A DNA stretch of 64,000 bases from an uncultured Candidatus Binatia bacterium (lineage in GTDB: Bacteria; Desulfobacterota; Binatia; UBA9968; JAJDTQ01), in the NCBI GenBank assembly GCA_965213675.1, contig OZ243916.1, positions 1,408,001 to 1,472,000 on the forward strand, in the 5' to 3' direction. Shown here piece by piece: positions 8,811 to 30,936 of this stretch. Within the stretch, counting starts at the first letter, position 1. Every line of letters begins with the position of its first letter. The notes under the pieces are model-generated. The model was not told the DNA's origin, ran no database searches, and saw nothing but the letters and a program-made list of their open reading frames with translations. A program made the translations under genes and the position numbers.

Positions 8811-9425
8811 TCAGGGGCTTGCGTGAACGATGGCCCGATGCCTGAAACACTGCACCAGGTGATCGTTCACCATCCCCACCGCCTGCATGAAAGCGTAGCA
8901 GATGGTCGGCCCGACGAACCGGAACCCGCGGCGGGCGAGGTCGCGGCTCATGGCTTCCGACTCCGGCGTACGCGCCGGGACGTCCTCATGGTCGCGCCAG
9001 CCGTTGACCCGCGGACGTCCGCCGATGAACTGCCAGATGTAACGGTCGAAGGTGCCGTGCTCCTCCTTGACCCGGAGAAACGCCTGCGCGTTGACCACCG
9101 CGGCGTTGACCTTGAGACGGTTCCGGACCAGGCCGGAATCCGCCAGCAACTCGCGCCGCTTCGGTTCATCATAGCGGGCGACGGTGTCGGGGTCGAAGTT
9201 GGCGAAGGCGCGGCGATAGCCATGCCGCTTCTTGAGGATGGTGTCCCAACTCAGCCCCGCCTGAGCGCCCTCGAGGATCAGAAACTCGAAGAGCGTCCGG
9301 TCATCGTGGCACGGGACCCCCCATTCGGCGTCATGATAGGCCGTGGACAGCTCGGTCTTGGCCCAATCGCAGCGCACGAGCGGGTCGCCGGTGAGAAGCT
9401 CACACCGGTGCCGGAATGCATCCAT
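8811..9425 (-). CDS. tag: DNA-3-methyladenine glycosylase I
   Basis: YHDAEWGVP, LEGAQAGLSW, FVGPTICYAFMQAVGMVNDH. Confidence 0.95.
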   Translation of the reverse strand: MDAFRHRCELLTGDPLVRCDWAKTELSTAYHDAEWGVPCHDDRTLFEFLILEGAQAGLSWDTILKKRHGYRRAFANFDPDTVARYDEPKRRELLADSGLVRNRLKVNAAVVNAQAFLRVKEEHGTFDRYIWQFIGGRPRVNGWRDHEDVPARTPESEAMSRDLARRGFRFVGPTICYAFMQAVGMVNDHLVQCFRHRAIVHASP

Positions 9426-9583
9426 CGAGAACTCCTTCTCCAATTGGAATCATGAAAACCTATGCAGGCTCGCGGGCCACTGTCAAACCTTCCACCGATG
9501 GCAACTTCCCCGCGAGACCGCTGTTTTCGGACGGGTCTTCATTCGCGCCGCCAACCTGCCGCTGGAGGTTTTCCATGCTCAAA

Positions 9584-9634
9584 CTCGGAACGCTCCCAGG
9601 AGCCTGCGGCGCAGGCTCCTGGGAGCGTTCCGAG
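9584..9634. repeat. 51-bp perfect palindrome
   Basis: CTCGGAACGCTCCCAGGAGCCTGCG-G-CGCAGGCTCCTGGGAGCGTTCCGAG (25-bp arms). Confidence 0.95.
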
Positions 9635-9771
9635 AATCGACTGACTTGCGTCACCGCGGGCTTGACCCGGGGTCTTCCCCGCGTGGTGACCGCCAGGGCG
9701 ACCGCCGGTCGCCCCTACAGGTCCTCGGCCTTGCCGGCGACAAAAATCCTCCACACCTGAGTCCACGTATT
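9613..9771. repeat. ~155-bp direct repeat, copy 2
   Basis: Near-identical to 5780-5937. Confidence 0.85.
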
Positions 9772-9805
9772 TGCGAAACGCAGCACCAGGCGCGGCAGCC
9801 GCGGT

Positions 9806-11881
9806 TCACTCGTAACGCAACGCTTCGATGGGATTGAGGCGCGCGGCCCGGTTGGCGGGCTGGAAGCCGAAGAACACGCCGATGGCGGCGGCAAAGGCGA
9901 AGGCCAGCAGGATGGAGCCCGGCGAGATGACGATCTGCCAGCCGCCCATGTAGGAGAGTCCCAGTGAAGCCGCGGCGCCGGCAAGGATGCCGGCGATTCC
10001 CCCCATGAGGCTCAGCACCATCGCCTCGGTGAGGAACTGGCGGCGGATGTCGCGCCGGCGGGCGCCGATGGCCAGGCGCACGCCGATCTCGCGGGTGCGC
10101 TCGGTCACCGACACCAGCATGATGTTCATGATGCCGATGCCGCCGACGATGAGCGCTACCCCGGCGATGCCCGCCAGCAGGAAGCCCAAGGTGTTGGCGG
10201 CCTCGTTGGCCGCCTCGACGATGTCGGTGCGGTTGCGCACCCGAAAGTCGTCCAGCTTGGTGCCGGTTATCTTGTGGCGCACGCGCAATAGCCCGGTGAT
10301 GCCGTCCTGCACGTCCGACGTCGCTTGCTTGTTTTCCGCGCTCACTTCGATGCCGCGCACGTAGCGTATGCCCAGAAGCTTCCGCTGCGCCGTCCGCAGC
10401 GGGACGATGACGATGTCGTCGAGGTCACCGGAGAACGAGGACGTTCCCCGTTCCTTGAGCACGCCCACCACCTCGAAGGGGATGTGCTTGACCCGGATGG
10501 TCTGTCCCATGGGATACGCGTCGCCGAAAAGCTCCTTGGCCACGGTCTGCCCGATCAGGGCCACCTTGCGATTCAGGAGCATGTCGTCCGCGGTGAAGTT
10601 GGACCCCGACTCAACCCCCCAATTCATGATTTCGAGATATTCGGGTGTCGTGCCGGTAAATCCCGGATGCCAGTTCTTGTTGCCGTAGACCACCTGAGCG
10701 GAGCCCCGGACATGGGGCGCCACACGGACCACTCCGGGCACCTCCGCGAGGATGGCCCTGGCGTCCGCCTCGGTGAGCGTCGTGATGCGCGCGCCCCGCA
10801 CGCGCCGGCCGCCGCGGGTCACTGTGCCAGCATAGACCGAGACGCGATTGCTGCCGAGGCGCTCCATCTGCTTGGCGACTCTGGCCTTGGCCCCCTCGCC
10901 AATGGCCACCATGGCAATGACCGCGCCTACGCCGATGATCACGCCCAGCATGGTCAAGGCGGAGCGCAGCTTGTTGACCCGGATGGCCCGCAGGGCGATA
11001 CGGACGTTGGCCCGGAGACCAGCGCCCAAACCCCGCCTGCGGCGCTGCCCCCCGTTGCCGCCGCCATTGCCGTCGCCGCCGCCCGCGCCGGTGTCGCCCG
11101 GCCCAAGGAGGTCGTGGACGCCGCCCGCTTCAGACCCGTCGCCGGAAGCCCCCGAGCCCCCCGCCGCGGCCGCGTCCAATCCCGCGTGGGCGCCCACCTC
11201 CTCCCGTTCCACGAGCCCGTCCTTGAAGTGAATGATGCGCTGTCCGTGGGAGGCCACCTCGGGATCATGGGTCACGAACACAATGGTGATGCCCTTCTCC
11301 CGATTGAGCTTCTTGAAGAGATCGATGATTTCCGCGCCGGTGCGCGTATCGAGGTTTCCGGTGGGCTCGTCCGCGAGAATGATCCGGGGATCGTTGAGCA
11401 GCGCCCGGGCAATGGCCACCCGCTGTTGTTGGCCGCCGGACAACTGCGTGGGGCGGTGCGTCTCCCGTTCGCCGAGGCCCACCAGCGCGAGCATCTCGCG
11501 GGCCTTGCGGCGGCCGGCCGCCGCCGGCGTGCCGTTGTAGAGAGCGGGAAGCTCGGCGTTTTCGAGGGACGTGGTGCGCGCCAGGAGATTATAGTTCTGG
11601 AAAACGAAACCGATCTCGTGGTTGCGCACAAAGGCCATCTCGTCCAGCGAGAGTTGAGCCACGTCGTCCCCGTTCAAGCGATACCGGCCCGTGGTCGGCC
11701 GATCCAGAAGACCCAGCAGGTTCATGAGGGTGGACTTGCCCGAGCCGGAAGGTCCCATGAGCGCCACGATCTCGCCCCGAAAGATCGTCAAGGAAACGCC
11801 TTTCAGGGCCTCCACCCGCTGCTCACCAAGATCGTAGACCTTGGTGACGTCTTTCACTTCGATGACCGGCAACCGTTCCAC
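9806..11881 (-). CDS. macB: MacB-type ABC transporter (ATPase-permease fusion)
   Basis: GPSGSGKST, LSGGQQQRVAIARAL, GIGIMNIMLVSVTERTREIG, NPIEALRYE. Confidence 0.9.
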   Translation of the reverse strand: MERLPVIEVKDVTKVYDLGEQRVEALKGVSLTIFRGEIVALMGPSGSGKSTLMNLLGLLDRPTTGRYRLNGDDVAQLSLDEMAFVRNHEIGFVFQNYNLLARTTSLENAELPALYNGTPAAAGRRKAREMLALVGLGERETHRPTQLSGGQQQRVAIARALLNDPRIILADEPTGNLDTRTGAEIIDLFKKLNREKGITIVFVTHDPEVASHGQRIIHFKDGLVEREEVGAHAGLDAAAAGGSGASGDGSEAGGVHDLLGPGDTGAGGGDGNGGGNGGQRRRRGLGAGLRANVRIALRAIRVNKLRSALTMLGVIIGVGAVIAMVAIGEGAKARVAKQMERLGSNRVSVYAGTVTRGGRRVRGARITTLTEADARAILAEVPGVVRVAPHVRGSAQVVYGNKNWHPGFTGTTPEYLEIMNWGVESGSNFTADDMLLNRKVALIGQTVAKELFGDAYPMGQTIRVKHIPFEVVGVLKERGTSSFSGDLDDIVIVPLRTAQRKLLGIRYVRGIEVSAENKQATSDVQDGITGLLRVRHKITGTKLDDFRVRNRTDIVEAANEAANTLGFLLAGIAGVALIVGGIGIMNIMLVSVTERTREIGVRLAIGARRRDIRRQFLTEAMVLSLMGGIAGILAGAAASLGLSYMGGWQIVISPGSILLAFAFAAAIGVFFGFQPANRAARLNPIEALRYE

Positions 11882-11885
11882 GGCG

Positions 11886-13319
11886 TCAGAGACCTCCGAG
11901 AATCCGCGAACGCACGCGTGAGGTGGTGTTGGTGGCGCGCTTCATGGCCTCCGAGCGTATTCCCACGATGACCTGATCGCCGACCTCCAGACCCGAGACG
12001 ACCTCCATGTTCCTGGCATCGGTGGCGCCGAAGCGGATGCGCTTCCGAACCGGCTTGTCGTCCTGGTAGACCCACACGCCGCCGCGGCCCTCCAGCATCC
12101 ACCGGCGCCTCTGCTCGGCGCTGGGCCGACCGCGCCGGCGCCCGCCTCCTGGCCGGGGCAGATCGGGGTATAGCTGGCGGATGTCCCGGCCGCTGACCCG
12201 GAGTGCCGCCCCCGGCGCAATGAGCACGTTCTGCCGCCGGGCCAGTATGATGGTGACGTTGGCCGTCATGCCGGGCTTGAGGGCCAGGTCCTTGTTGGGC
12301 ACCCGGATCTCGGTGTCGTAGGTGACAACGTTGTCCTTGATCAGAGGCGACGGAAAAATACGCACCACCTTGCCCTCGAACGTCCGCCCCGGGTACGAAT
12401 CCACCGAGAACTCCACCTCCTGCCCGACCTCCACCTTGCCGATGTCCGCCTCGTCGACAAAGGCCGAGACCTTCATTTCCTCCAACTCGGCGATCTTCAC
12501 CAGTGGCGGCGACGACAAGCTCGCCGCCACTGTCTGCCCCGCTTCCACGGTCTTCTGGATCACCACGCCGGAGATGGGCGCGACCACGACGCTGCGGTTG
12601 AGCCGCACCCGCGCCATCTCCAACTCGGCCTCCGTCTGCTGGATGTCGGCGCGGATGCCCGCGATCACCGCCTGCTTGACCTTCACCTCGTCGACCCGGG
12701 CCGACTCCTCCCGGTGGCGCGCGGCGGCGCGTTCGTACTCCGCCTGGATGGACTCGTACTGTTCCCGCGAAATCAGGTTGCGCCCCGCGAGGTCCTTGTT
12801 ACGCCGGTGCTTCTCCTCCAGGCTGTCGAACGCCGCCTTGGTCCCCGCAATGCTCGCGGCCACCCGGGATTTCAGCATCTCCACGCCCGCCAGCTCTCGC
12901 GCGAGATTGGCCCGGGCCTTCGCCACCTTGGCTTCCGCCTGGAGCAATTGCGCCCGGAACAGATCCTGGTCCAGCCGCGCGATCAGATCGCCCTTCCGGA
13001 CCCGCATGGGCACGTCCACCGGCATATCCTGGATGGTGCCGGACACCTGGGTGGAGACGGTCACCGACGACACCGGGTTCACCGTGCCGGTGGTGGTGAT
13101 GCGGGAGAAGATCTCGCCCCTCTCGGCCTTTGCTAGCCGGAAAGGAAACACCTTCTTCGTCTCGTCCGCCGAAGTGAACCTGCCCGTCAGCGAAGAAAGC
13201 CCGCTCCGCACCGAACCCACGCTGCTCTCCACCAGCGCCGGATCGTACAGGAAGAGCCCCGCGCCCCCTGCCCCGGCCAGAACCAGGACAATGGCGCCAA
13301 TCCAAATGACACGCTTCAT
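11886..13319 (-). CDS. MacA-like periplasmic adaptor subunit
   Basis: N-terminal TM, VSTQVSG, APISGVV, VDEADIG, LKPGMTA; adjacent to macB. Confidence 0.9.
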   Translation of the reverse strand: MKRVIWIGAIVLVLAGAGGAGLFLYDPALVESSVGSVRSGLSSLTGRFTSADETKKVFPFRLAKAERGEIFSRITTTGTVNPVSSVTVSTQVSGTIQDMPVDVPMRVRKGDLIARLDQDLFRAQLLQAEAKVAKARANLARELAGVEMLKSRVAASIAGTKAAFDSLEEKHRRNKDLAGRNLISREQYESIQAEYERAAARHREESARVDEVKVKQAVIAGIRADIQQTEAELEMARVRLNRSVVVAPISGVVIQKTVEAGQTVAASLSSPPLVKIAELEEMKVSAFVDEADIGKVEVGQEVEFSVDSYPGRTFEGKVVRIFPSPLIKDNVVTYDTEIRVPNKDLALKPGMTANVTIILARRQNVLIAPGAALRVSGRDIRQLYPDLPRPGGGRRRGRPSAEQRRRWMLEGRGGVWVYQDDKPVRKRIRFGATDARNMEVVSGLEVGDQVIVGIRSEAMKRATNTTSRVRSRILGGL

Positions 13320-19171: not shown

Positions 19172-20299
19172 ATGTCGACCCGGCCCGACGATCCCCGCAA
19201 CACCGGCCTCAGCCTTTCCATCATCGTGCCGACGTTTCGTGAGGCGGCCAACGTGGCGCCGCTGGCCGAAGGCATCCGCACCGCCCTGTCCGCCAGCGGC
19301 ATCGAGTGGGAGCTGCTGCTTGTGGACGACGATTCGGACGACGGCAGCGAGGAAGTCGTGGCGGAACTGGCCCGGCGCCTGCCCGTGCGCATGGTGGTGC
19401 GGCGGGACGCGCCCCGGGACCTTTCCCTGGCGGTCATCGAAGGCATGCGCCTGGCGCGCTTCGACAATCTGGTGGTGATGGACGCGGACCTTTCGCATCC
19501 GCCCGAGCGCATCGCCGAACTGCTGGCGGCCCTCGACAGCGGCTGTGACATGGTCCTGGGAAGCCGCTATGCGCCGGGCGGCGCGGTGGACGAGTCCTGG
19601 AGTTTCTACCGCGTGTTGAACTCGCGGCTGGCCACCTGGATGGCGCGCCCGCTGGTCCAGTGCGCCGATCCCATGTCGGGCTTTTTCGCCACCCGGCGCA
19701 GCGCGTTGCCGGAACTGCTCACGCTGCGGCCCATGGGATACAAGATCGCGCTGGAACTCATCGTGCGCGGCGGTCTTCGGGTGCGCGAGGTGCCCATCGA
19801 CTTCCGCGACCGTAGCGCGGGTGCGAGCAAGATGAACTGGCGCCAGCAACTCCGGTTCCTGCGTCACCTCTCCAGGCTCTACAACTACCGGTTCGGGACC
19901 TTGGCCCGGGTGCCGCTGTTCGGCGCGGTGGGCGCCAGCGGGCTCGCCGTCGATCTGGCCTGCTATCTCGGCCTTCAGTGGGCCGGTGTCGAGCACCGCC
20001 TGGCGCGCTTCCTGTCGTTCTGGCCCGCGGTGAGCTGGAATTGGGCGCTCAACCGCGGCTTCACCTTCAGCGAGCGCGCGCGGCAGCCGCACCTGGGCCA
20101 ATGGGCGCGATTCACGGCCAGCAGCCTCGTGGGCCTCGGGGCGAACGTCGGCGGCTACGCGCTGCTCACGAGCTACGTGGATGTGTTCGAGCGCCACCGC
20201 CTGGCCGCTTTCTTTCTCGGCGTGGGCCTCGGCGCGCTGGTGAACTTCGTGGTCGCCGATCTATACGTCTACCAGAAGCGCCCGGACTCGGCGCGCTGA
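19172..20299 (+). CDS. Polyprenol-phosphate mannose synthase (DPM1/Ppm1-like GT2) fused to a GtrA-like membrane domain
   Basis: IIVPTFRE, VDDDSDDG, VMDADLSHP, GSRY, DPMSGF, GYKIALE, EVPIDFRDR..GASKM; C-terminal TM domain with NWALNRGFTF. Confidence 0.85.
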   Translation: MSTRPDDPRNTGLSLSIIVPTFREAANVAPLAEGIRTALSASGIEWELLLVDDDSDDGSEEVVAELARRLPVRMVVRRDAPRDLSLAVIEGMRLARFDNLVVMDADLSHPPERIAELLAALDSGCDMVLGSRYAPGGAVDESWSFYRVLNSRLATWMARPLVQCADPMSGFFATRRSALPELLTLRPMGYKIALELIVRGGLRVREVPIDFRDRSAGASKMNWRQQLRFLRHLSRLYNYRFGTLARVPLFGAVGASGLAVDLACYLGLQWAGVEHRLARFLSFWPAVSWNWALNRGFTFSERARQPHLGQWARFTASSLVGLGANVGGYALLTSYVDVFERHRLAAFFLGVGLGALVNFVVADLYVYQKRPDSAR

Positions 20300-20394
20300 T
20301 GCCGCGGACCGGACGGGTTTATCAGGACCCCCCGGGAGCCGGGCATTGCGGATGACCGGGCCGGGACGCACGCTCCCACACCCTCAAGCAACCG

Positions 20395-22926
20395 ATGGCG
20401 GCAAAAGGCAAAGGCAGACAACACACACCCCTGGATTCCACTCGCGACGGCAGGCCGAAAGCGGCCGCGGAGATCGCCGGTCCGCCCGCGGCCGGAGCAG
20501 GCGCGCCCCACGGGTCTTCACGCCGTCACGCGCTGACCGTGCTGGGACTCGGCCTTCTCGTGCTGGTGAGCTATTTCCCCGCGCTTTCGGGCGGCTTTGT
20601 CTGGGACGACGTGATCTTCTCCGAGGAGCCCGTGCTCCAGCGCTGGTCCGGCCTCTGGAGCGTGTGGTTCGCGCCCGCGGACATCAAGAACGAGGGACAC
20701 TACTGGCCCATCGTCTATTCGAGCTTCTGGCTGGAGCACAAGCTGTGGGGCCTCGCGCCGATGGGGTACCACATCGTCAACCTCCTGTTGCACTGGGTCA
20801 ACACCCTGCTCGTGTGGCGTCTGCTCGCGCGCCTGAGCGTGCCCGGGGCGCTGGCCACGGCCGTGGTGTTCGCCGTGCACCCGCTTCACGTCGAGTCGGT
20901 GGCTTGGCTCATCGAGCGCAAGGACCTCTTGTCGGGGTTGTTCTACTTCGCCGCCGCGCTCGCCTGGATGCGCTTCGTCGAAACCCCGAACCGGTGGAAC
21001 TACGGTCTCGCGTTGGGGTTCTACGTTGCCGCCATGCTCTCCAAGTCGGTGGCGGTGACCCTGCCGGTGGCGCTGCTGATCTGGCACTGGTGGCAGCGGG
21101 AACGGATCACCGCCGCCGACCTTGCGCGGCTGGTGCCCTTCTTCGTGATCGGACTCGCCATCACCGGCGCCGACTACCTGTACTACAGCGGGCGGGAACC
21201 GCTGGACCTGGGCTACTCGCTCGTCGAACGGGTCCTCATCGCATCCCGCGCCCTGTGCTTCTACGTCGGAAAGCTCCTGTGGCCCACGGACCTGGCGGTG
21301 ATCTACCCCGTGTGGGACGTGGGCGCCGGCAACCCGCTGGCCTGGGCCTACGCGGCGGCGGTGGCGGCCACGGCCGCGCTCCTGTGGCTGGGCCGGCGGC
21401 GCAGCCGGGCGCCCCTCGCCGCCGCGCTGTTCTACGCCGTGACGCTGGCGCCCGTGCTGGGTTTCATCGACTATGGCTACATGCAGTTCGCCTTCGCCGC
21501 GGACCGCTTTCAGTACGTGGCGGGCCTGGGCGTCATGGCGTTTCTCGTCGGCGCCGCCGCGTGGGGGGCGCGCCGGCTGTCCCCGACCCTCGCCCTCACC
21601 GCCCGCGGCGCGTTCGCCGCCGGCGTGGCGGCGCTGGCGGCGTTGAGCTGGACGCAGTCGGGGATCTACCGGGACGAGGTCGCCTTCTTCGGCCACATCG
21701 CCGCGCGCAACCCCGCGGCGCGGGACGCCTACCTGAACCTCAGCAGCGCACTATTCAAGCGGGACCGTTTCGAAGAGGGTCTCGCCGCCAGCCGCCGCGC
21801 CCTTGAGATTCGCCCGGACTCGGCCAAGGCGCTGTCCAACGTCGGGCACGGACTGTTGACCCGCGGTGACTTCGACGAGGCCGAATCGTACCTCAAGCGC
21901 GCCGTGAAGATCGACCCGCGCCACGTCGCGGCGCACCAGAACCTGGGCGAGGTGCTGCGCAAGACGAAGCGCCACGAGGAGGCGTTGTCGTCGTATCGTA
22001 CGGTGCTTCGGATCGACACGGACTACGCCCTGGCCCACAGCGGCATGGCCGCCGCGCTGTACGAGTTGAAGCGTTACGAGGAGGCTGCTTCGACGATGGC
22101 GAAGTCCCTGTCCCTGGACCCGGACACGTCCCAGGCAGCCGGGCAGCATCGCTTGATCGGGATGGCGCTCCAGGCCTCGGGCAAGCCGCGCGAGGCGGAA
22201 ACGTATCTCCGTCGGGCCATGGAACTGGCGCCGCACAAGACGGAGTACCTGCTGGCGCTGGCGCTCCTGCTTCGCGAGCAACAGCGTGGCGCGGAAGCCG
22301 ACGAACTTCTCGATCGGGCCAAGGCGCGGTCGAGGAACGATGTCGTCGGTCTCCACAACGTCGCGGAGGCGCTGCGGCTCCAGGGCCGACACGCCAGCGC
22401 CATGGAGTCCTATCGCGCCGCCCTGGCCGTCGAGCCGGAGTTTGCTCCAGCGCACGCCGGGCTGGGGATTGCGCTATTCCGGACCGGGAAGCACGCCGAT
22501 GCCATCGACGCCATGGCGCGGGCGCTCCGGTTGAAGGCCGATCTGCCGGTGGCGCCCACGCTGCGCATCCTGATGGCCCGCGCCCACGAAGCCATGGGCG
22601 ACACCGCGCGCGCGGGGCAGGTCCTTGAACGCGCCCTCGAACACGACCCCAGCCACGAGGAAGCGCTCGATCGGCTGGCGCTGATGCGCTTTGGACAGAA
22701 ACGCTACGGCGAAGCCCTGAGACTCTACCGGAAACTGCTCGAACTCGTTCCCGACGCGGCGCAGCACCACTCCAATCTTGGCGCCACCCTGTATCACCTG
22801 GGGCAGACCCGCGAGGCCCTGGCGAGCTTCGAGCGCGCCCTTGCCCTGAAACCCGACCTGAAGATGGCGCAGCGGGGCGTGGCCGACATGCGCCGGCTCC
22901 TGGCCCGATCCCGGAAACAACCCTGA
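20395..22926 (+). CDS. TMTC-like membrane protein (GT-C-like TM domain plus long TPR array)
   Basis: FVWDD after TM1, HYWP, HPLHVESVAW..ERKD, LSKS, ADRFQY, then many TPRs. Confidence 0.8.
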   Translation: MAAKGKGRQHTPLDSTRDGRPKAAAEIAGPPAAGAGAPHGSSRRHALTVLGLGLLVLVSYFPALSGGFVWDDVIFSEEPVLQRWSGLWSVWFAPADIKNEGHYWPIVYSSFWLEHKLWGLAPMGYHIVNLLLHWVNTLLVWRLLARLSVPGALATAVVFAVHPLHVESVAWLIERKDLLSGLFYFAAALAWMRFVETPNRWNYGLALGFYVAAMLSKSVAVTLPVALLIWHWWQRERITAADLARLVPFFVIGLAITGADYLYYSGREPLDLGYSLVERVLIASRALCFYVGKLLWPTDLAVIYPVWDVGAGNPLAWAYAAAVAATAALLWLGRRRSRAPLAAALFYAVTLAPVLGFIDYGYMQFAFAADRFQYVAGLGVMAFLVGAAAWGARRLSPTLALTARGAFAAGVAALAALSWTQSGIYRDEVAFFGHIAARNPAARDAYLNLSSALFKRDRFEEGLAASRRALEIRPDSAKALSNVGHGLLTRGDFDEAESYLKRAVKIDPRHVAAHQNLGEVLRKTKRHEEALSSYRTVLRIDTDYALAHSGMAAALYELKRYEEAASTMAKSLSLDPDTSQAAGQHRLIGMALQASGKPREAETYLRRAMELAPHKTEYLLALALLLREQQRGAEADELLDRAKARSRNDVVGLHNVAEALRLQGRHASAMESYRAALAVEPEFAPAHAGLGIALFRTGKHADAIDAMARALRLKADLPVAPTLRILMARAHEAMGDTARAGQVLERALEHDPSHEEALDRLALMRFGQKRYGEALRLYRKLLELVPDAAQHHSNLGATLYHLGQTREALASFERALALKPDLKMAQRGVADMRRLLARSRKQP

Positions 22927-22978
22927 CCGGCCGGCAAACCGACGACTCTACCGGCCAACCGACGCCGCCATTCGCGCC

Positions 22979-24955
22979 ATGAAGAGAGAAAAGGCCAAGC
23001 CGAGCCGTGGCGCGAAGACGACGCCGGAAGAAGCCCCGCAAGCGACGGGTGCGCCCGAGACCCGTCGGGCCCCGAGCCTGCCCTCCCGCGCCGACGCCCT
23101 CGCGACCGCGACGCTGGGCCTGTTGATCGCGGTCAGCTACTTTCCCGCGACCCGGTTGGGCTTCGTTTGGGACGATGTGATCATCACGACCCTGCCGGCG
23201 ATCCAGGACTGGCAAGGACTATGGGATTTGTGGTTTGCGCCGGCCAGCGCCTACCGGAAGGGCTTCATCGGCGAGGACCACTATTGGCCGGTGCTCTATA
23301 CAACCTTCTGGCTGGAACACAAGCTCTGGGGGTTCGCCCCGGCCGGTTACCATATCGTCAACCTGGTCCTTCACCTCATCAACACGGTGTTGTTGTGGCG
23401 TCTGTTCCTGCGGCTGGCCGTGCCCGGCGCGTGGTGGGTGGCCGCGATCTTCGCGGTGCATCCCCTGCACGTGGAGTCCGTCGCCTGGGTCATCGCCCGA
23501 AAGGATCTCCTCGCGACCCTGTTCTATCTTGCCGCCTTCGCCGTCTGGCTCCGCTTCGTCGGGGCGCCGCGCATCGGGCGCTACGTCGCGGTGATGGTCC
23601 TGTTCGCCGCGGGGATGCTGTCCAAGTCCATCGTGGTCACGTTTCCGGCCGCGCTGTTGATCTGGCACTGGTGGAAGGCGGGACGGGTCACCGGGCCGGA
23701 CCTGATCCGGCTGGTTCCTCTGTTCCTTCTCGCCGCGGCCCTGGCCGCCCTCGACCTGGCCATCTATCAGAAGGTGAACCTCTCCTTCGACTACACCTTG
23801 ACCGAGCGGGCGCTGATGGCGGCGCATTCCCTGTGGTTCTACGCCGGAAAGCTCCTGTTCCCGGTTCACCTGGCAGTCCTCTATCCGCCGTGGGATCTGG
23901 CGGGTGCGCCGGCTTGGGGCTATCTCGCGGCCGCGGCGGCCGCATTGGCGTCCCTCTGGCTCCTGCGCCGGCGCGTGGGGCGAGGTCCCCTGGCCTGCGC
24001 GCTGTTCTTCGGGCTCACACTGTCGCCCGTCCTGGGCTTCGTGGACTTTGGCTACATGAACGTTTCCTTCGCCGCGGACCGCTACCAGTACCTGGCGGGA
24101 GCCGGCGTGCTCATGCTCGTGGCGGGCGGCGCCGCGCGCGGGGCGGAGCGCCTTCGGGGAGCCGCGAAAACGGCTGCCACGGCCGCGGCCGGCGTCGTGC
24201 TGGCGCTCCTGGCAACGGGCGTCTGGCTTCAGTGCGGCGTCTACCAGAATGACCTTACGCTCTTCCGCCATGCCGCCGCCACCCACCCGGACTCCTGGGC
24301 CGCCCACAGCCGCGCCGGCGCGGAGACCCTCAAGAGAAAGCGCTACGACGAGGCCGAGCGCCACTTCCGGCGCTCCCTGGAACTCCGCTCGCACGACGCC
24401 ACCGGGCGGCACCGCCGCGACACCCTTCAGAACATCGCCGAAACGCTGCGCATGCGCGGGCGACATGCCGAGGCCCTGGCGACCTACCGGGCCGCAAGCG
24501 CGGAAGACCCCGGGTACGCCCTGGCCCATCTCGGGATGGGTGCGGCACTGTTCAATCTGCGCCGCTACGACGAAGCCGTGGCCGCTCTGGAGCGGGCGCG
24601 GATTCTCGGTCTGCAACCGGCCAGGGACGCGGCCATCCGGCGGCTCCTGGCGCAGGCCCTCGATCGCGCCGCCCATTCACGATTCACCGGCCAACGCTAC
24701 CAGGAGGCCCTCGAACTGTATCGCAAGCGGATAGCCCTCGAACCCGGCCATGCCGAACCCCACGCCAACGCGGGCGCGGCGCTCTTCTATCTGGGCCGGC
24801 TCGACGAGGCCCTTCGAAGCTTCGAGCGCGCGCTGACGCTGAAACCGGACCTGGAGTCGGCCCGTTCCGGACGGGAAGCCGCGCTGCGACGCCTCCGGCA
24901 AGGCGGGGGGAGTGGTCAGGTACGGGAGCGGCCGGGCGGGTCCGCGCGGCCGTAG
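22979..24955 (+). CDS. TMTC-like membrane protein, paralog 2 (shorter TPR array)
   Basis: FVWDD, HYWP, HPLHVESVAW..ARKD, LSKS, ADRYQY, TPRs. Confidence 0.8.
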   Translation: MKREKAKPSRGAKTTPEEAPQATGAPETRRAPSLPSRADALATATLGLLIAVSYFPATRLGFVWDDVIITTLPAIQDWQGLWDLWFAPASAYRKGFIGEDHYWPVLYTTFWLEHKLWGFAPAGYHIVNLVLHLINTVLLWRLFLRLAVPGAWWVAAIFAVHPLHVESVAWVIARKDLLATLFYLAAFAVWLRFVGAPRIGRYVAVMVLFAAGMLSKSIVVTFPAALLIWHWWKAGRVTGPDLIRLVPLFLLAAALAALDLAIYQKVNLSFDYTLTERALMAAHSLWFYAGKLLFPVHLAVLYPPWDLAGAPAWGYLAAAAAALASLWLLRRRVGRGPLACALFFGLTLSPVLGFVDFGYMNVSFAADRYQYLAGAGVLMLVAGGAARGAERLRGAAKTAATAAAGVVLALLATGVWLQCGVYQNDLTLFRHAAATHPDSWAAHSRAGAETLKRKRYDEAERHFRRSLELRSHDATGRHRRDTLQNIAETLRMRGRHAEALATYRAASAEDPGYALAHLGMGAALFNLRRYDEAVAALERARILGLQPARDAAIRRLLAQALDRAAHSRFTGQRYQEALELYRKRIALEPGHAEPHANAGAALFYLGRLDEALRSFERALTLKPDLESARSGREAALRRLRQGGGSGQVRERPGGSARP

Positions 24956-26373
24956 ACATCTTCGTAACGAACGATGTCGTCTTCTTCCAGATAACCGCCG
25001 GTCTGCACTTCGATCACTTCCAGCGGATCCACGCCGGGATTCGCCAGCCGGTGTTTCGTTCCCAGGGGAATGAAAATGGACTGGTTCTCGGCAAGGGTGA
25101 CGGTCTCCTCGCCCCGCGTCACCCGCGCCGTTCCACGCACCACCACCCAGTGCTCGGCGCGTTGGCGGTGGGACTGCAGCGACAGGGACTGGCCGGGTTG
25201 GACAACGATGTGCTTGACCTTGAAGCCCTGGCCCGCGTGAACCGAATCGAAGGTGCCCCAGGGACGGCGCACCTTGCGGTGGTCGTGGTGTTCTTCCCGG
25301 CCCTCCGAACGGAGCCGCGCCACCACCCGGCCCGTGTCCTGAGCCGTATCCCGCCGCGCCACCAGCAGCGCGTCGGCCGTATCCACGATGACGAGGTCGG
25401 ACACGCCCACCGCGGCCACCAGGCGTTTGCCGCCGCGTACGTAGGTGTCCCGGACCCCCTCCAGGAGCGCGTCGCCCCGAACCACGTTGCCGTCGCCGTC
25501 CGCTGGCGCGAGATCGGCCAGCGCCGCCCAGGAACCGACATCGGACCACCCGGCGTCGAGCGGGATCATCACCGCGTTGGATGTGCGCTCCATGACCGCG
25601 CGGTCCACGGCGATGGCCGGGCAACGCGAGAAGGCGTCCGCATCCAGCCAGCGATAGCCCGCGCGCGCCACCGCCTTGCCGTAGGCGTGCGCCGCGGCGT
25701 CGCGCACGGCGGGCGCGTGAACGCCCAGGTCCGTGAGGTACCGTGCAGCCGCGAATACGAACATGCCGCTGTTCCAGTAGTGACCGCCCGCCGCCAGACA
25801 GGCGGCGGCTCCGGCAGCGTCGGGCTTTTCCACAAACCGGTCCACCCGGCAGCCGTGCGCGCTGACGCCGGTGGCGGCGCCCGCCTTGATGTACCCGTAA
25901 CCGGTCTCGGCGCGGTTCGGAACCACGCCGAAGGTCACGAGATGCCCGGCGGCGGCTTCGCGGACGGCGGCGCGAACGGCGCGGGCGAATCGGAGCGCGT
26001 CACGGATCACGTGGTCCGCCGGCAGCACCAGCAGGACGGGCACCTCGCCGTCGCCCGCGAGGTCGAGCGCCTGCAGCGCCGCCGCCGCAATGGCGGGCGC
26101 GGTGTTCCTCCCGGCCGGCTCCAGCAGTACCGCCGTGGTTGCCACATGGATCGCGTCGAGTTGTCCGGACACCATGAACCGGTGCGACTCGTTGCACACC
26201 ACGATGGGCGGGCGCGACTCCTCGATCAGCGCCAAACGCCTGGCGGTGGCTTGCAGCAAGGTGTGCTCTTCCACCAGCGGAATGAACTGTTTGGGATGGC
26301 GCTCCCGGGACAGGGGCCAGAGCCGTGTGCCAGCGCCGCCGGAAAGAATGACGGGGAACAGAACGTGACGCAT
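24916..26373 (-). CDS. manC: Mannose-1-phosphate guanylyltransferase / mannose-6-phosphate isomerase
   Basis: ILSGGAGTRLWPLSR..PKQF, EPAGRNTAPA, GWSDVGSW, cupin RPWG...LSLQSH..RAEHWVVV. Confidence 0.95.
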   Translation of the reverse strand: MRHVLFPVILSGGAGTRLWPLSRERHPKQFIPLVEEHTLLQATARRLALIEESRPPIVVCNESHRFMVSGQLDAIHVATTAVLLEPAGRNTAPAIAAAALQALDLAGDGEVPVLLVLPADHVIRDALRFARAVRAAVREAAAGHLVTFGVVPNRAETGYGYIKAGAATGVSAHGCRVDRFVEKPDAAGAAACLAAGGHYWNSGMFVFAAARYLTDLGVHAPAVRDAAAHAYGKAVARAGYRWLDADAFSRCPAIAVDRAVMERTSNAVMIPLDAGWSDVGSWAALADLAPADGDGNVVRGDALLEGVRDTYVRGGKRLVAAVGVSDLVIVDTADALLVARRDTAQDTGRVVARLRSEGREEHHDHRKVRRPWGTFDSVHAGQGFKVKHIVVQPGQSLSLQSHRQRAEHWVVVRGTARVTRGEETVTLAENQSIFIPLGTKHRLANPGVDPLEVIEVQTGGYLEEDDIVRYEDVYGRADPPGRSRT

Positions 26374-26542: not shown

Positions 26543-27319
26543 CTACAGATCGAACTCACGCACCAGCGCCAGGCGCAACAGGATCAGGTGATTCTCGACC
26601 CGGTAAGGACAGGCCGCGAGCGCGCCGCCCGACCCGCAAGGGTTGTTGCCGGAGCGGTTGACCCAGTGCGTACCGCGACCGAAACCCAGGTACGAGGCAT
26701 CCAGCCGCCATCTCCAGGAACTCATCCGGGGCGTCTCGATACCGATTCCGAGCACCCAACCTATGCGGGTGGCGTGGTGCAGAAACGAATCGTCCGGATC
26801 TCTACGCGGGGGCATGTCCGGCGAGAAATCGATGTCGGTCAGGGTATTCGTGATGCGCGCCAGGGCCGCGCCCCCGTTGATGAAGACCGTCCACGGCCCC
26901 TCCCGGTGCTCCAGCCCCAGGCGCGCGGTGGCGGCCCAGCGGACCCGCCCTCTCACCGTCTCGTCCCGCCCGGCGGGGTCGAGGCGGTCCGACTTTCCCG
27001 ACATCTCACCCCAGGCCCCGTCGAGTTCCAGCCTCAGGCGCGCCTTGTCCAGGGTGAATTTGCGTCCCACCAGAACACCCCAGGAAAAATCGCCGTCGTC
27101 GTAATCCGTGGCCCAGCCCGGCATGCCCCAGTTGGCAAAGCCGCTGCGGTCGATGATCCGGTTCTCGGTGCGAGCGGCGCCGGCGAATACACCAGCGTAG
27201 GTTTCTCCCCAGGCCGCGGCGCTGGTGGTCGAGGGGATGCCGGCCGCAAGAACGAGCGTCCAAAGCAGAAACCGCGCGAATCCGGCAAGGCCGGTGCGAA
27301 CTGAGTCAGTGGAATCCAT
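26543..27319 (-). CDS. Outer-membrane beta-barrel protein
   Basis: Signal peptide, YAGVFAG, ATARLGL, GWVLGIGIE, amphipathic beta strands. Confidence 0.7.
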   Translation of the reverse strand: MDSTDSVRTGLAGFARFLLWTLVLAAGIPSTTSAAAWGETYAGVFAGAARTENRIIDRSGFANWGMPGWATDYDDGDFSWGVLVGRKFTLDKARLRLELDGAWGEMSGKSDRLDPAGRDETVRGRVRWAATARLGLEHREGPWTVFINGGAALARITNTLTDIDFSPDMPPRRDPDDSFLHHATRIGWVLGIGIETPRMSSWRWRLDASYLGFGRGTHWVNRSGNNPCGSGGALAACPYRVENHLILLRLALVREFDL

Positions 27320-27537
27320 AGTGGGGCCGATCATGGGACGAATTTACGAGGAAACTTCCATTGTTTCCACCGGTCCAGATTCGCGCCGTTGCGGGCATCC
27401 TTCATGCCGGATGGAAGCCGGCGATTCCCGCCTCCGATCAGGGTCGCGGACAAACGTTCGCGGGCATGACATCTTCATGTCCATGACGAACCCCGGGGCC
27501 TGCTTTCGCATCGCTCGTCACGTACCTTCCTTCAACA

Positions 27538-28227: not shown

Positions 28228-28418
28228 GTCAATCCGCGCGCGCGACCCGGACAGCCGCGCCCCCGTGCCGCATGGGCGAGAGGATTCGTTGTGCATGGAA
28301 TTTACCTGCGGCATTAAATCAACTATAAACGAACGCGCCGACGCAAGACCGCCGCATTTTCGTGCCCACGTCGGCACAGCGCAGCGTGTCGGGTTCATGG
28401 AATCGCCGCGAGAGGCAC

Positions 28419-28457
28419 TTTCGCATCGCTCTTCACGAACTTTTTTGCAACATCGGG
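28419..28457. repeat. Short dispersed repeat (inverted copy at 55276-55314)
   Basis: TTTCGCATCGCTCTTCACGAACTTTTTTGCAACATCGGG versus the reverse complement of 55276-55314. Confidence 0.6.
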
Positions 28458-28544
28458 ATCTCGACAAACCCGACAGACTCCCAGGACGCACGCCGACGCG
28501 AGACAGAGGGAATCCCGACAAGACTCCGTGGGAGACATCCTTTC

Positions 28545-29249
28545 ATGAATCAACGCATCGGCAAGATAGCGGTAGTGGTGGTGGTGGCCGCTCTCGTCGC
28601 CAGCTTCTTCATCTTCGACCTGGGGAAGTACTTCAACCTCGAGTTCATCAAGGCGCAACGGGACGCATGGCTGGGCTACTACCAGCACAACCCCGCCATC
28701 ACCATCGCCGTGTACGCCGCGGTCTATATCGCGGTGACGGCGCTGTCGCTTCCGGGCGCGGCCATCATGACGCTTTTGGGCGGGGCGCTGTTCGGGGTGA
28801 TCACCGGCACCATTGTCGTCTCTTTTTGCAGCACCATCGGCGCCACCCTGGCGTTCCTGGTGGCGCGTTTCCTGCTCCGGGACAGCATTCAGGGCAAGTT
28901 CGGCGACAGGCTCGAGACCATCAACCAGGGCATCGCCAAGGAGGGGATGTTCTATCTCTTCACCATGCGGCTGATCCCGGTGATTCCTTTCTTCGTCATC
29001 AATCTGGTGATGGGGCTCACCCCCATCCGCGCCGTGCAGTTCTTCTTCGTGAGCCAACTGGGCATGTTTCCCGGCACCATCGTCTTCGTGAACGCCGGCA
29101 CCCAACTGGCCCAGATCGATTCGCTGGCGGGCATTCTGTCCCCTACGCTACTGGCGTCATTCGCGCTGCTCGGGCTGTTTCCGCTCATCGCGAAAAAGTC
29201 CATCGGGTGGGTCCAGAAGCGCAGACAGGCAAAGACCGCCGGAGACTGA
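28545..29249 (+). CDS. TVP38/TMEM64 (DedA/VTT superfamily) membrane protein
   Basis: ALSLPGA, GATLAFLVAR, RLIPVIPFFVINL, SQLGMFPGT. Confidence 0.9.
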   Translation: MNQRIGKIAVVVVVAALVASFFIFDLGKYFNLEFIKAQRDAWLGYYQHNPAITIAVYAAVYIAVTALSLPGAAIMTLLGGALFGVITGTIVVSFCSTIGATLAFLVARFLLRDSIQGKFGDRLETINQGIAKEGMFYLFTMRLIPVIPFFVINLVMGLTPIRAVQFFFVSQLGMFPGTIVFVNAGTQLAQIDSLAGILSPTLLASFALLGLFPLIAKKSIGWVQKRRQAKTAGD

Positions 29250-29406
29250 CCGTGTTGCGGGCGCTCAAGGGAGGGCGGAAACCTGTTCCGAACCTGTGGA
29301 AGGGCTCTGGACGAACGGAAGAAGTTTTCGCCGAATCGTCAACCTGACACCGTTCGTCCTGAGCGAAGCAAAGGCGACGGATGCCGTCCGGACCGGGAGA
29401 ACAAGC

Positions 29407-30936
29407 ATGCGTCACATTCCGCAACTTTCGCCGCAGGATGAATACAACGAGGTGCTGGGGTCCAACACGCACCCGCCGGACTGGACCAATCCGGCGCCGG
29501 CCGACCGCTACAATCTGGTGGTCATCGGCGCCGGCACCGCCGGGCTCGTGACCGCGGCCGGGGCCGCCGGACTCGGCGCCAGGGTGGCGCTGGTGGAGCG
29601 CCATTACCTCGGCGGCGACTGCCTCAACGTGGGCTGCGTTCCGTCCAAATGTCTCATTCGTTCGTCGCGGGTGGTGGCGGAGATGCGCGAAGCAAACACG
29701 TTCGGCATCGGGCGGCCGGATGAAGTGCAGGTGGACTTCGCCGCGGTCATGGAACGCATGCGCCGCATCCGGTCGCACATCAGCCACCACGACTCGGTGA
29801 AGCGCTTCAGCGACCTGGGCGTGGACGTGTTCCTGGGAGACGCGAGCTTCACCGGCCCCGAAACCGTGGACGTGGACGGTCAGCCGCTCCACTTCAAGAA
29901 GGCCGTGATCGCCGCCGGCGCGCGCGCGGCCGCGCCCCATCCGCCCATCGAGGGGCTGGAGGAAGCGGGTTATCTGACCAACGAGACCGTGTTCTCGCTG
30001 ACCCGGCGTCCGGAGCGGCTCGCCGTCATCGGCGCCGGCCCCATCGGCTGCGAATTGGCGCAGACCTTCCAGCGCCTGGGTTGCCAGGTGATGCTGTTCC
30101 ACAACGGCGACCACATCCTCAACCGCGAAGACGCCGACGCCGCGGCCATCGTGCAGGACCAGTTCCTGCGCGAAGGCATCCAACTGGTGTTGAACAGCGC
30201 GCTCAAGCGCGTGGAGATGGAGAACGGCCGCAAGGTGGTGCACTTCGAGGCAGGCGGGACCCCCGACACGGTAACCGTGGACGAGATTCTCGTGGGGGCC
30301 GGACGCAAACCCAACGTGGACGGCCTCAACCTCGACGGCGTGGGCGTGCAGTACCACCCCTTTCGCGGCATCGTGGTGAACGACTACCTGCAGACCACCA
30401 ATCCGCGCATCTTCGCCGGCGGCGATGTGTGCATGGACTGGAAGTTCACCCATGCCGCCGACGCGGCCTCGCGCATGATCATCCAGAACGCACTCTTCTA
30501 CAAGAGCAAGAAGCTGAGTTCGCTGATCATGCCATGGGCGACGTACACCGACCCGGAGATCGCCCACGTGGGCCTGTACGAGCACGACGCCGGAAAGCAG
30601 GGCGTCGCCATCGACACCTACGTGCGCGAACTCAAGGAAGTGGACCGGGCGCTGGCCGACGGGGAGGAAGACGGCTTCGTCAAGATCCACGTGAAGAAGG
30701 GCACGGACACGATCGTTGGCGGCACCATCGTGGCGCGCCACGCCGGCGAGATGATCAGCGAAATCACCCTGGCCATGGCCGGCAAGGTCGGCCTCGGCGC
30801 CATCGGCAACGTCATTCACCCCTACCCCACCCAGGCCGAAGCCATCAAGCAGGCCGGCGACGCCTACAACCGCACACGGCTGACGCCCACGGTGAAGAAG
30901 ATATTTCAGCGCTGGCTGGCGTGGAGCCGGCGATAG
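29407..30936 (+). CDS. Pyridine nucleotide-disulfide oxidoreductase (mercuric reductase / dihydrolipoamide dehydrogenase-like)
   Basis: IGAGTAG, GGDCLNVGCVPSK, IGAGPIG, HPYPT; no C-terminal CC pair. Confidence 0.85.
   Translation: MRHIPQLSPQDEYNEVLGSNTHPPDWTNPAPADRYNLVVIGAGTAGLVTAAGAAGLGARVALVERHYLGGDCLNVGCVPSKCLIRSSRVVAEMREANTFGIGRPDEVQVDFAAVMERMRRIRSHISHHDSVKRFSDLGVDVFLGDASFTGPETVDVDGQPLHFKKAVIAAGARAAAPHPPIEGLEEAGYLTNETVFSLTRRPERLAVIGAGPIGCELAQTFQRLGCQVMLFHNGDHILNREDADAAAIVQDQFLREGIQLVLNSALKRVEMENGRKVVHFEAGGTPDTVTVDEILVGAGRKPNVDGLNLDGVGVQYHPFRGIVVNDYLQTTNPRIFAGGDVCMDWKFTHAADAASRMIIQNALFYKSKKLSSLIMPWATYTDPEIAHVGLYEHDAGKQGVAIDTYVRELKEVDRALADGEEDGFVKIHVKKGTDTIVGGTIVARHAGEMISEITLAMAGKVGLGAIGNVIHPYPTQAEAIKQAGDAYNRTRLTPTVKKIFQRWLAWSRR

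Follow-up and report, generated by a model that had tools for sequence, protein, structure and literature searches.

In animals, the proteins TMTC1-4 (CAZy family GT105) serve in the endoplasmic reticulum as O-mannosyltransferases for cadherins and protocadherins, and combine a GT-C domain of 11 transmembrane (TM) helices with a non-cytoplasmic array of tetratricopeptide repeats (TPRs). In bacteria, TfpW of Pseudomonas aeruginosa is described as a GT-C enzyme of the inner membrane that uses a polyprenyl-phosphate monosaccharide to glycosylate pilin; 11 TM helices are predicted for it, and it has a DDx motif and, at its C-terminus, a TPR domain located in the periplasm (bioRxiv 10.1101/2020.04.19.049825). 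The actinobacterial and fungal PMTs (GT39) take polyprenyl-phosphate mannose (polyprenyl-P-Man) from a Ppm/DPMS enzyme, while in the Gtr-type three-component and ArnC-ArnT systems a GT2 enzyme loads polyprenyl phosphate, a GtrA-like module is implicated in flipping and a GT-C enzyme transfers the sugar outside the cytoplasm. Archaeal type-III dolichol-phosphate mannose synthases (DPMS) carry the GT2 and GtrA-like TM domains in one chain (PMC5526996, PMC12992685). Here we analyzed a four-gene locus in a 64,000-nucleotide stretch of DNA (the window) from an uncultured Candidatus Binatia bacterium (GenBank assembly GCA_965213675.1, contig OZ243916.1, positions 1,408,001 to 1,472,000), which encodes a GT2-GtrA fusion protein, two TM+TPR proteins (A and B) and a convergent manC (Table 1). 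Our proposal is that the cluster forms a periplasmic mannosylation module following the synthase-flippase-GT-C logic; with protein Ser/Thr as the acceptor, the chances of this reading seem to us evenly balanced.

The donor side of the proposal is very probably correct. A DPM1-like, mannose-type synthase fused to a GtrA-like domain had been predicted originally, and was recovered by Pfam, by the PDB match and at the level of ligand residues. The fusion protein matched both Glycos_transf_2 (PF00535, 2e-24) and GtrA_DPMS_TM (PF04138, 2.7e-19), its C-terminal part being a GtrA-like 4-helix membrane domain. Among PDB sequences, its best match was the DPMS of Pyrococcus furiosus (PfDPMS; 5mlz, E 2.1e-52, residues 13-361), in an alignment that spans the catalytic and the membrane domain, with ArnC (3e-15) and GtrB (5e-8) far behind. 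The PfDPMS residues named in PMC5526996 (chain numbering minus 22) were mapped on this alignment, and 11 of the 13 ligand residues were identical: E12, D39, D89, D91, H94, R117, R131, S135, K178, R202 and K208 correspond to E24, D53, D104, D106, H109, R132, R147, S151, K191, R214 and K220. One residue was conservatively changed (F177 to Tyr) and one differed. Identical residues included all four that are reported to contact the mannosyl group in PfDPMS, D89, H94, R117 and K178 (PMC5526996).

The DAD motif and the Arg/Ser/Arg phosphate site described for type-III DPMS were likewise present (PMC5526996, PMC12992685). The position of R341 is taken by Asn, as in most (non-Thermococcales) members, and N248 and F338 of the TM pocket by Asp and Ala in an HMMER alignment whose TM helices are uncertain at this distance. 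With a GT2 domain bearing DPMS residues and a GtrA-like domain in one chain, the protein has the two-domain make-up of the type-III class, which under a strict definition is stated to be confined to archaea (PMC12992685, 2026). Judged by its sequence, it is a full-length bacterial relative of these enzymes, and the assignment as a DPMS-like (type-III-like) polyprenyl-phosphate mannose synthase is well supported at that level. The GtrA-like domain is possibly a flippase; that of type-III DPMS is proposed in PMC12992685 to flip the enzyme's own product. The Gtr arrangement was also recognizable, as PF00535 and PF04138 lay in one protein with two GT-C genes directly downstream. The known Gtr and Arn systems differ from the locus in lacking a TPR arm and in their targets, which are O-antigen, teichoic acids or lipid A, whereas here the GtrA domain is fused to the synthase, which is far nearer to DPMS than to GtrB or ArnC. 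The last donor gene, manC, was assigned with TIGR01479 (GMP_PMI, 1.3e-184, 614.4 bits, above the equivalog cut-off of 372.95) and the Pfam families NTP_transferase and MannoseP_isomer.

Orthologs of the synthase were found in 22 of 27 same-genus genomes, and two of 33 genomes that represent other families of the order had a weaker match. For 20 of the 22 orthologs, the surrounding 18 kb was compared, which revealed a genus-wide backbone of polysaccharide deacetylase, AlkA, GT2-GtrA, a variable slot, manC and an outer-membrane protein. The original claim of a link between synthase and manC proved real and conserved, with a convergent manC paired with the synthase in 18/20 loci and lying outside the DNA fetched in the other two. 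The slot between the two genes was empty in 13 loci, held 1-3 TM+TPR genes in six, and in one (locus L113 of genome G021, 9023-12027) held a 588-aa Alg9-like GT22 mannosyltransferase (PF03901, 3e-28) next to a 413-aa gene without a Pfam family. Where several TM+TPR genes were present their order was fixed, namely A type, an optional A' type and B type, and the B-type orthogroup was always the final gene before manC. Identity of the slot proteins to those of the window was 65-71% for the TM domain but 51-61% for the TPR arm, such that the arms diverge faster than the catalytic domains. At one locus (L118, genome G013) the match to the A-type gene is split between two frames (residues 11-336 and 339-440), which suggests a frameshift or a sequencing error.

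At the genome level, 19 of the 27 same-genus genomes had both synthase and TM+TPR genes and four had neither (Fisher p = 0.009, a value inflated by relatedness). Because the manC-synthase pair is conserved, the active site is of the DPMS type and a mannose-specific GT22 gene occupies the same slot, we infer polyprenyl-P-Man as the product; mannose is the likely sugar.

For the consumer side, the TM domain of protein A (residues 1-440) was modeled from 33 sequences with a pLDDT of 91.2 and a pTM of 0.89. Foldseek matched this model to ArnT, STT3, Pmt4, PglB and AftA, and VIA-align gave Z 22.0 to yeast STT3 (319 residues, 4.3 A), 19.5 to both ArnT and Pmt4, 19.3 to Pmt1/2, 18.8 to AglB (3waj), 17.6 to PglB and 11-14 to enzymes of the ALG3/PimE/PIG-M type. 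The model thus upheld the predicted GT-C fold, with Z scores of 19-22 to STT3, ArnT and Pmt, and we confidently place the modeled domain in the GT-C(A) fold of the ArnT/PMT/STT3 class. The GT-C domain of B was 54% identical to that of A. The relationship emerged from fold comparison alone, and the PDB matches listed there included no TMTC structure. When the search was made by sequence, the TM domain found no PDB entry at E<=10, and neither did a TPR-free profile of 52 sequences, solved PMTs included. A first profile, built with the TPR tails still attached, returned only TPR proteins and was discarded. Compared with the PMTs, with which they have in common the fold and matches to Pfam PMT_2 (see below), the TM+TPR proteins have a TPR arm and no MIR domain, and DD in place of the DE of PMTs.

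The full-length model of A (pLDDT 88.7, pTM 0.74) showed 11 TM helices followed by 24 helices, or ~12 TPR hairpins, and the closest structural match of this arm was the peptide-binding TPR superhelix of the O-GlcNAc transferase (OGT). Pfam TPR families were matched in the TM+TPR proteins. Charges in A were biased across the membrane: the predicted cytoplasmic side has 18 K+R and 6 D+E, and the outer loops have 8 K+R and 14 D+E, which fits a modeled topology where the N-terminus is cytoplasmic and the TPR arm periplasmic. In the TPR-free alignment of 52 TM domains, D72, H126, H162, P163, H165, K176, K217, Y290, P297 and Y374 were invariant, and W70, D71, E167, A369 and D370 were conserved in at least 90%. 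The motifs noted originally, FVWDD after TM1, HPLHVESVAW, LSKS and ADR(F/Y)QY, were present in both proteins and represent more than chance because they are conserved across the 52 family members.

The similarity to TMTCs lies in architecture and in motif logic. As in TMTC1-4, the model of A has an 11-TM GT-C domain followed by a periplasmic TPR array, and there are several paralogs with differing TPR arms. The TMTC ligand motifs given in PMC7801869 are DD and SHKSYRP in external loop 1 (EL1), an Asp in EL2 with a Lys in EL3, DW in EL4 and the Arg of AERV in EL5. When set against this published motif text, rather than a TMTC alignment, counterparts were found at the same topological sites: D71/D72 after TM1, H102-Y-W-P105 as an aromatic-Pro motif ahead of the second EL1 helix, an acidic residue starting TM4 (D177) with a Lys after TM5 (K217), and A369-D-R371 for the A(D/E)R before TM10. 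Conserved residues placed on the model coincided with the TMTC and ArnT ligand-residue positions of the same paper (PMC7801869). Unlike the TMTCs, the proteins have no counterpart of the EL4 DW motif, with Y304-P-x-W307 in its place. A further difference lies in the setting, which is the bacterial periplasm with presumably a bacterial polyprenol instead of dolichol as the carrier, and with donor genes clustered with the transferases.

Membership of the TMTC family in the strict sense was not supported. The Pfam signature TMTC_DUF1736 matched neither TM domain at E<=10, found nothing at E<=1 across the genome of 4.5 Mb and matched only 1 of the 52 relatives (E 0.12), and PMT_2 (PF13231) was matched instead. 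In a genome scan all four TM+TPR paralogs of the genome exceeded the curated PMT_2 cut-off of 26.1 bits (27.3-35.7 bits; A 35.7, B 28.5), and 28 of the 52 relatives matched at E<=1 (best 6.5e-11). By hmmscan of the proteins, B scored 24.3 bits, below the cut-off, and A gave no match at E<=10; the two scorings of A therefore disagree over 20728-21132. A protein-language-model look-up, to be taken as a lead only, ranked a chordate DUF1736 cluster 19th (score 0.91), after bacterial PMT_2 and TPR clusters. Since the DUF1736 signature was not found in them, we call the proteins TMTC-like; in our reading they probably function as TMTCs do, with a similar architecture and motif logic.

The genome itself carries four TM+TPR copies in two tandem pairs that lie 2 Mb apart, one of them at the present locus, and the four copies were its sole PMT_2 matches. 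All three GT2 genes that matched the synthase query lay beside TM+TPR genes, one at the present locus and two at the second. No GT22, GT87, TMEM260-like, YfhO or DUF1736 protein was found in the genome (STT3, PMT (PF02366) and GtrII were not scanned), nor did the GT22 protein of a related locus (L026) find a match, while the blank Pfam scan for GT22 is uninformative as control genomes were also silent. Being the sole GT-C enzymes found among the families scanned, the TM+TPR proteins are the likely users of the lipid-linked mannose.

At the second pair (locus L005, G000:C1:3397000-3416900), the two GT2 genes encode 327 aa (divergent) and 607 aa, and are accompanied by 638- and 682-aa proteins without a Pfam family, two YhgA-like transposase genes and a histidine kinase/sigma-54 regulator pair. 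Unlike the genes of the window, most genes of this region did not pass a filter on third-position G+C, and it may be acquired DNA. A 1227-aa reading of the first gene in this pair was rejected, as its N-terminal 369 residues overlap the opposite-strand GT2 gene.

Beyond the genus, a phmmer search with the TM domain against 1.84 billion representatives retrieved 69,668 proteins at the E<=1e-3 level, and 7,387 when the limit was set to E<=1e-30. Family members go under names such as "tetratricopeptide repeat protein" or "glycosyltransferase family 39 protein". When species genomes were scanned, at least 628 relatives were found, in Binatia, Acidobacteriota, Latescibacterota, Gemmatimonadota, Chloroflexota, Planctomycetota, Verrucomicrobiota, Proteobacteria and others. 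They fall into two subgroups, an FVWDD...ADRxQY type that includes the window proteins and an FIWDDD type without the ADR motif.

The neighborhoods of 79 related loci were compared, 13 of them shorter than 8 kb. Within this DNA, a GT2 gene was present at 12 loci and manC at three. At four of the 12, from Vicinamibacterales, Holophagales, Terriglobia and a gammaproteobacterium, the GT2 was a close synthase ortholog (61-68% identity) directly adjoining the TM+TPR gene. Unbiased clustering of neighbors at the 66 loci of at least 8 kb placed GT2 first (14 loci) and GT22 second (9 loci); no recurrent secreted-protein family emerged among these loci, the other clusters being a shadow-ORF (open reading frame) cluster and a hybrid histidine kinase (5 loci). 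Examples of the gene order are synthase, GT22, TM+TPR at a locus from Terriglobia, and two TM+TPR genes, GT22 and manC with a GT2 on the other strand in an alphaproteobacterium; synthase, manC, GT22 and TM+TPR genes co-locate also in Acidobacteriota and Proteobacteria. At a gammaproteobacterial locus (L020, 5397-9877), part of a GT2 and a C-terminal fragment of manC occur with a TM+TPR gene, and a GtrA-like piece stands apart; the module seems to be present there in rearranged or decayed form.

Taken as a pathway, ManC would make GDP-mannose in the cytoplasm and the GT2-GtrA protein would move the mannose to polyprenyl phosphate at the inner membrane face, with the fused GtrA-like domain probably helping the product across the membrane. 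The two GT-C enzymes would spend the lipid-linked mannose on the periplasmic side. Catalysis would proceed via the Asp-Asp after TM1, with the donor phosphate bound by His/Tyr of EL1, Asp/Lys of EL2/EL3 and Arg of EL5, and the differing TPR arms would pick the acceptors, most probably Ser/Thr of secreted or envelope proteins. Gene content, folds, conservation, synteny and co-occurrence were computed here, whereas what is said of the sugar, of its direction of flow, of flipping and of the acceptor is inferred.

A protein acceptor is favored, by analogy, because the characterized GT-C+TPR enzymes that we found in the literature, TMTC1-4 (PMC7801869), TMEM260 (PMC10214176) and TfpW (bioRxiv 10.1101/2020.04.19.049825), are all described as modifying proteins, because the arm resembles that of OGT, and because the TPR arms diverge faster; on this question we lean slightly towards protein. 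The fuller picture, of a Gram-negative protein O-mannosylation homologous to the animal TMTC pathway, in which the DPMS makes and flips the donor and the TM+TPR set mannosylates distinct classes of secreted or surface proteins, is offered tentatively, at somewhat less than an even chance.

A number of observations weigh against the proposal, and are considered here with the explanations that they favor. The most serious of these explanations keeps the donor pathway and makes the acceptor a glycan or glycolipid (periplasmic mannan, lipoglycan, lipopolysaccharide core or exopolysaccharide), with the TPR arm as a scaffold or a polysaccharide-binding domain. No candidate substrate gene is linked to the cluster within the window, and ArnT, a modifier of lipid A, scored level with the protein transferases, so that the fold cannot tell the acceptor. 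TPR domains also serve polysaccharide export, and known GT22 members extend lipid-linked glycans. A recurrent Alg9-like GT22 partner, seen at 9/66 loci and in the slot of one same-genus genome, would be just as compatible with a mannan or lipoglycan pathway. TfpW, too, has been proposed to polymerize its sugar (bioRxiv 10.1101/2020.04.19.049825). On the other side stand the protein targets described for the TPR-armed GT-C enzymes named above, the several paralogs with divergent TPR arms, which suggest many protein clients rather than one polymer, and the genome's own lack of a GT22 match. As GT22 recurs as a partner and ArnT is matched as closely in structure, mannosylation of a glycan or glycolipid stays a serious rival to that of protein, albeit one that we consider the less likely of the two.

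We regard it as improbable that the lipid-linked sugar is another hexose or hexosamine, with manC nearby for an unrelated reason. The sugar specificity of a GT2 enzyme is not provable from its sequence, and GT2 polyprenyl-phosphate glycosyltransferases of differing specificity have a common fold. Moreover, the NCBIfam matches of the synthase all lay far under their cut-offs, and Q93 of the DPMS metal site is Ser in the window protein. However, PfDPMS leads ArnC and GtrB by 37 orders of magnitude, the four mannosyl contacts are identical, manC is the fixed partner across the genus, and mannose-specific GT22 genes occur in the same slot and islands.

The distribution of the genes also tells in part against the proposal. 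Other families of the order have TM+TPR relatives that are not accompanied by a close ortholog of the synthase, and within the genus the synthase is present without TM+TPR genes in three genomes and the reverse is seen in one. The original claim of conserved clustering therefore stands in part: the co-location of synthase and TM+TPR genes recurs in the genus and in other phyla, but TM+TPR genes fill the slot at only 6/20 same-genus loci and 67 of the 79 loci elsewhere had no GT2 neighbor. That the adjacency is incidental, with TM+TPR genes in a variable intergenic hotspot that use another donor or are inert TPR scaffolds, could draw on these counts, on the 13 empty slots and on the transposase genes around the second pair, but is the least probable explanation, as the pairing recurs in four other lineages, all three DPMS-like GT2 genes of the genome flank TM+TPR genes, synthase and TM+TPR genes co-occur within the genus, catalytic residues are invariant, and the genes are co-directional with short gaps.

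If protein mannosylation is correct, the locus would represent a second bacterial O-mannosylation route beside the actinobacterial PMT, and a bacterial model for TMTC enzymology. Tens of thousands of entries named as TPR repeat proteins would then become protein glycosyltransferases, and the TMTC branch of O-mannosylation would originate in bacteria. The novelty suggested originally for a bacterial TMTC-type route was overrated, given that TMTC homologues "even among prokaryotes" (PMC7801869) and prokaryotic TMEM260 homologues (PMC10214176) are mentioned in print, and that TfpW is characterized as a bacterial GT-C+TPR protein glycosyltransferase. TfpW, which is likened to the present proteins by its description, differs in using D-arabinofuranose and in being encoded directly behind pilA, whereas no pilin gene is linked in the window (bioRxiv 10.1101/2020.04.19.049825). 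A KEGG orthology number for TMTC is also listed for a rhizosphere community in one paper. Full-text literature searches found no bacterial member of the present family with a tested function. What the window adds is a backbone of manC and synthase, conserved around a slot in which the consumer genes vary, DPMS evidence at the level of residues, and a bacterial type-III-like DPMS. With manC, the synthase-flippase fusion and the transferases side by side, and a slot that also accepts GT22, the sugar is fixed better than by family alone, and the four genes make a short pathway that could be co-expressed.

The layout of the locus was based on composition-aware ORF calling and translation, which re-derived the four genes as originally given (Table 1), with three co-directional genes separated by 95 bp (GT2-GtrA/A) and 52 bp (A/B) and manC sharing 40 bp with the end of B. 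The G+C content of the window is ~67%.

Table 1. Coordinates of the module genes and downstream neighbors in the window
Feature	Position	Strand	Length	Description
GT2-GtrA fusion	19172-20299	+	375 aa	counted from ATG
TM+TPR A	20395-22926	+	843 aa	GT-C(A) domain at about residues 40-425 (modeled); ~12 periplasmic TPR hairpins at 428-840 (predicted)
TM+TPR B	22979-24955	+	658 aa	GT-C domain paralogous to A; shorter TPR arm
manC	24916-26373	-	485 aa	bifunctional mannose-6-phosphate isomerase/mannose-1-phosphate guanylyltransferase
Small outer-membrane beta-barrel (predicted)	26543-27334	-		weak OMP_b-brl match, 2.3e-4
DedA/VTT-domain protein, then pyridine-nucleotide disulphide oxidoreductase	28362-30936	+		VTT domain PF09335, 6.6e-24

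In the genome at large, a scan for cadherin domains as candidate substrates gave one sub-threshold match (26.8 bits against a cut-off of 28.8; G000:C1:264151-264324), which is given no weight. The match sits in a 2566-aa open frame far from the cluster, possibly a giant adhesin.

The flanks of the cluster consist of housekeeping genes unrelated to it. Upstream lie two polysaccharide deacetylase paralogs, an enoyl-CoA hydratase, a nitronate monooxygenase and AlkA, and downstream the small beta-barrel, the DedA/VTT protein and the oxidoreductase. The beta-barrel gene lies 170 bp upstream of manC, and its position beside manC was kept in 13 of the 20 same-genus loci. DedA proteins have been linked to polyprenyl-phosphate recycling, and the DedA neighbor could be relevant to a lipid-linked sugar pathway. 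It lies with the oxidoreductase 2 kb past manC, and at least 3 of the 20 loci compared within the genus have the pair in this position.

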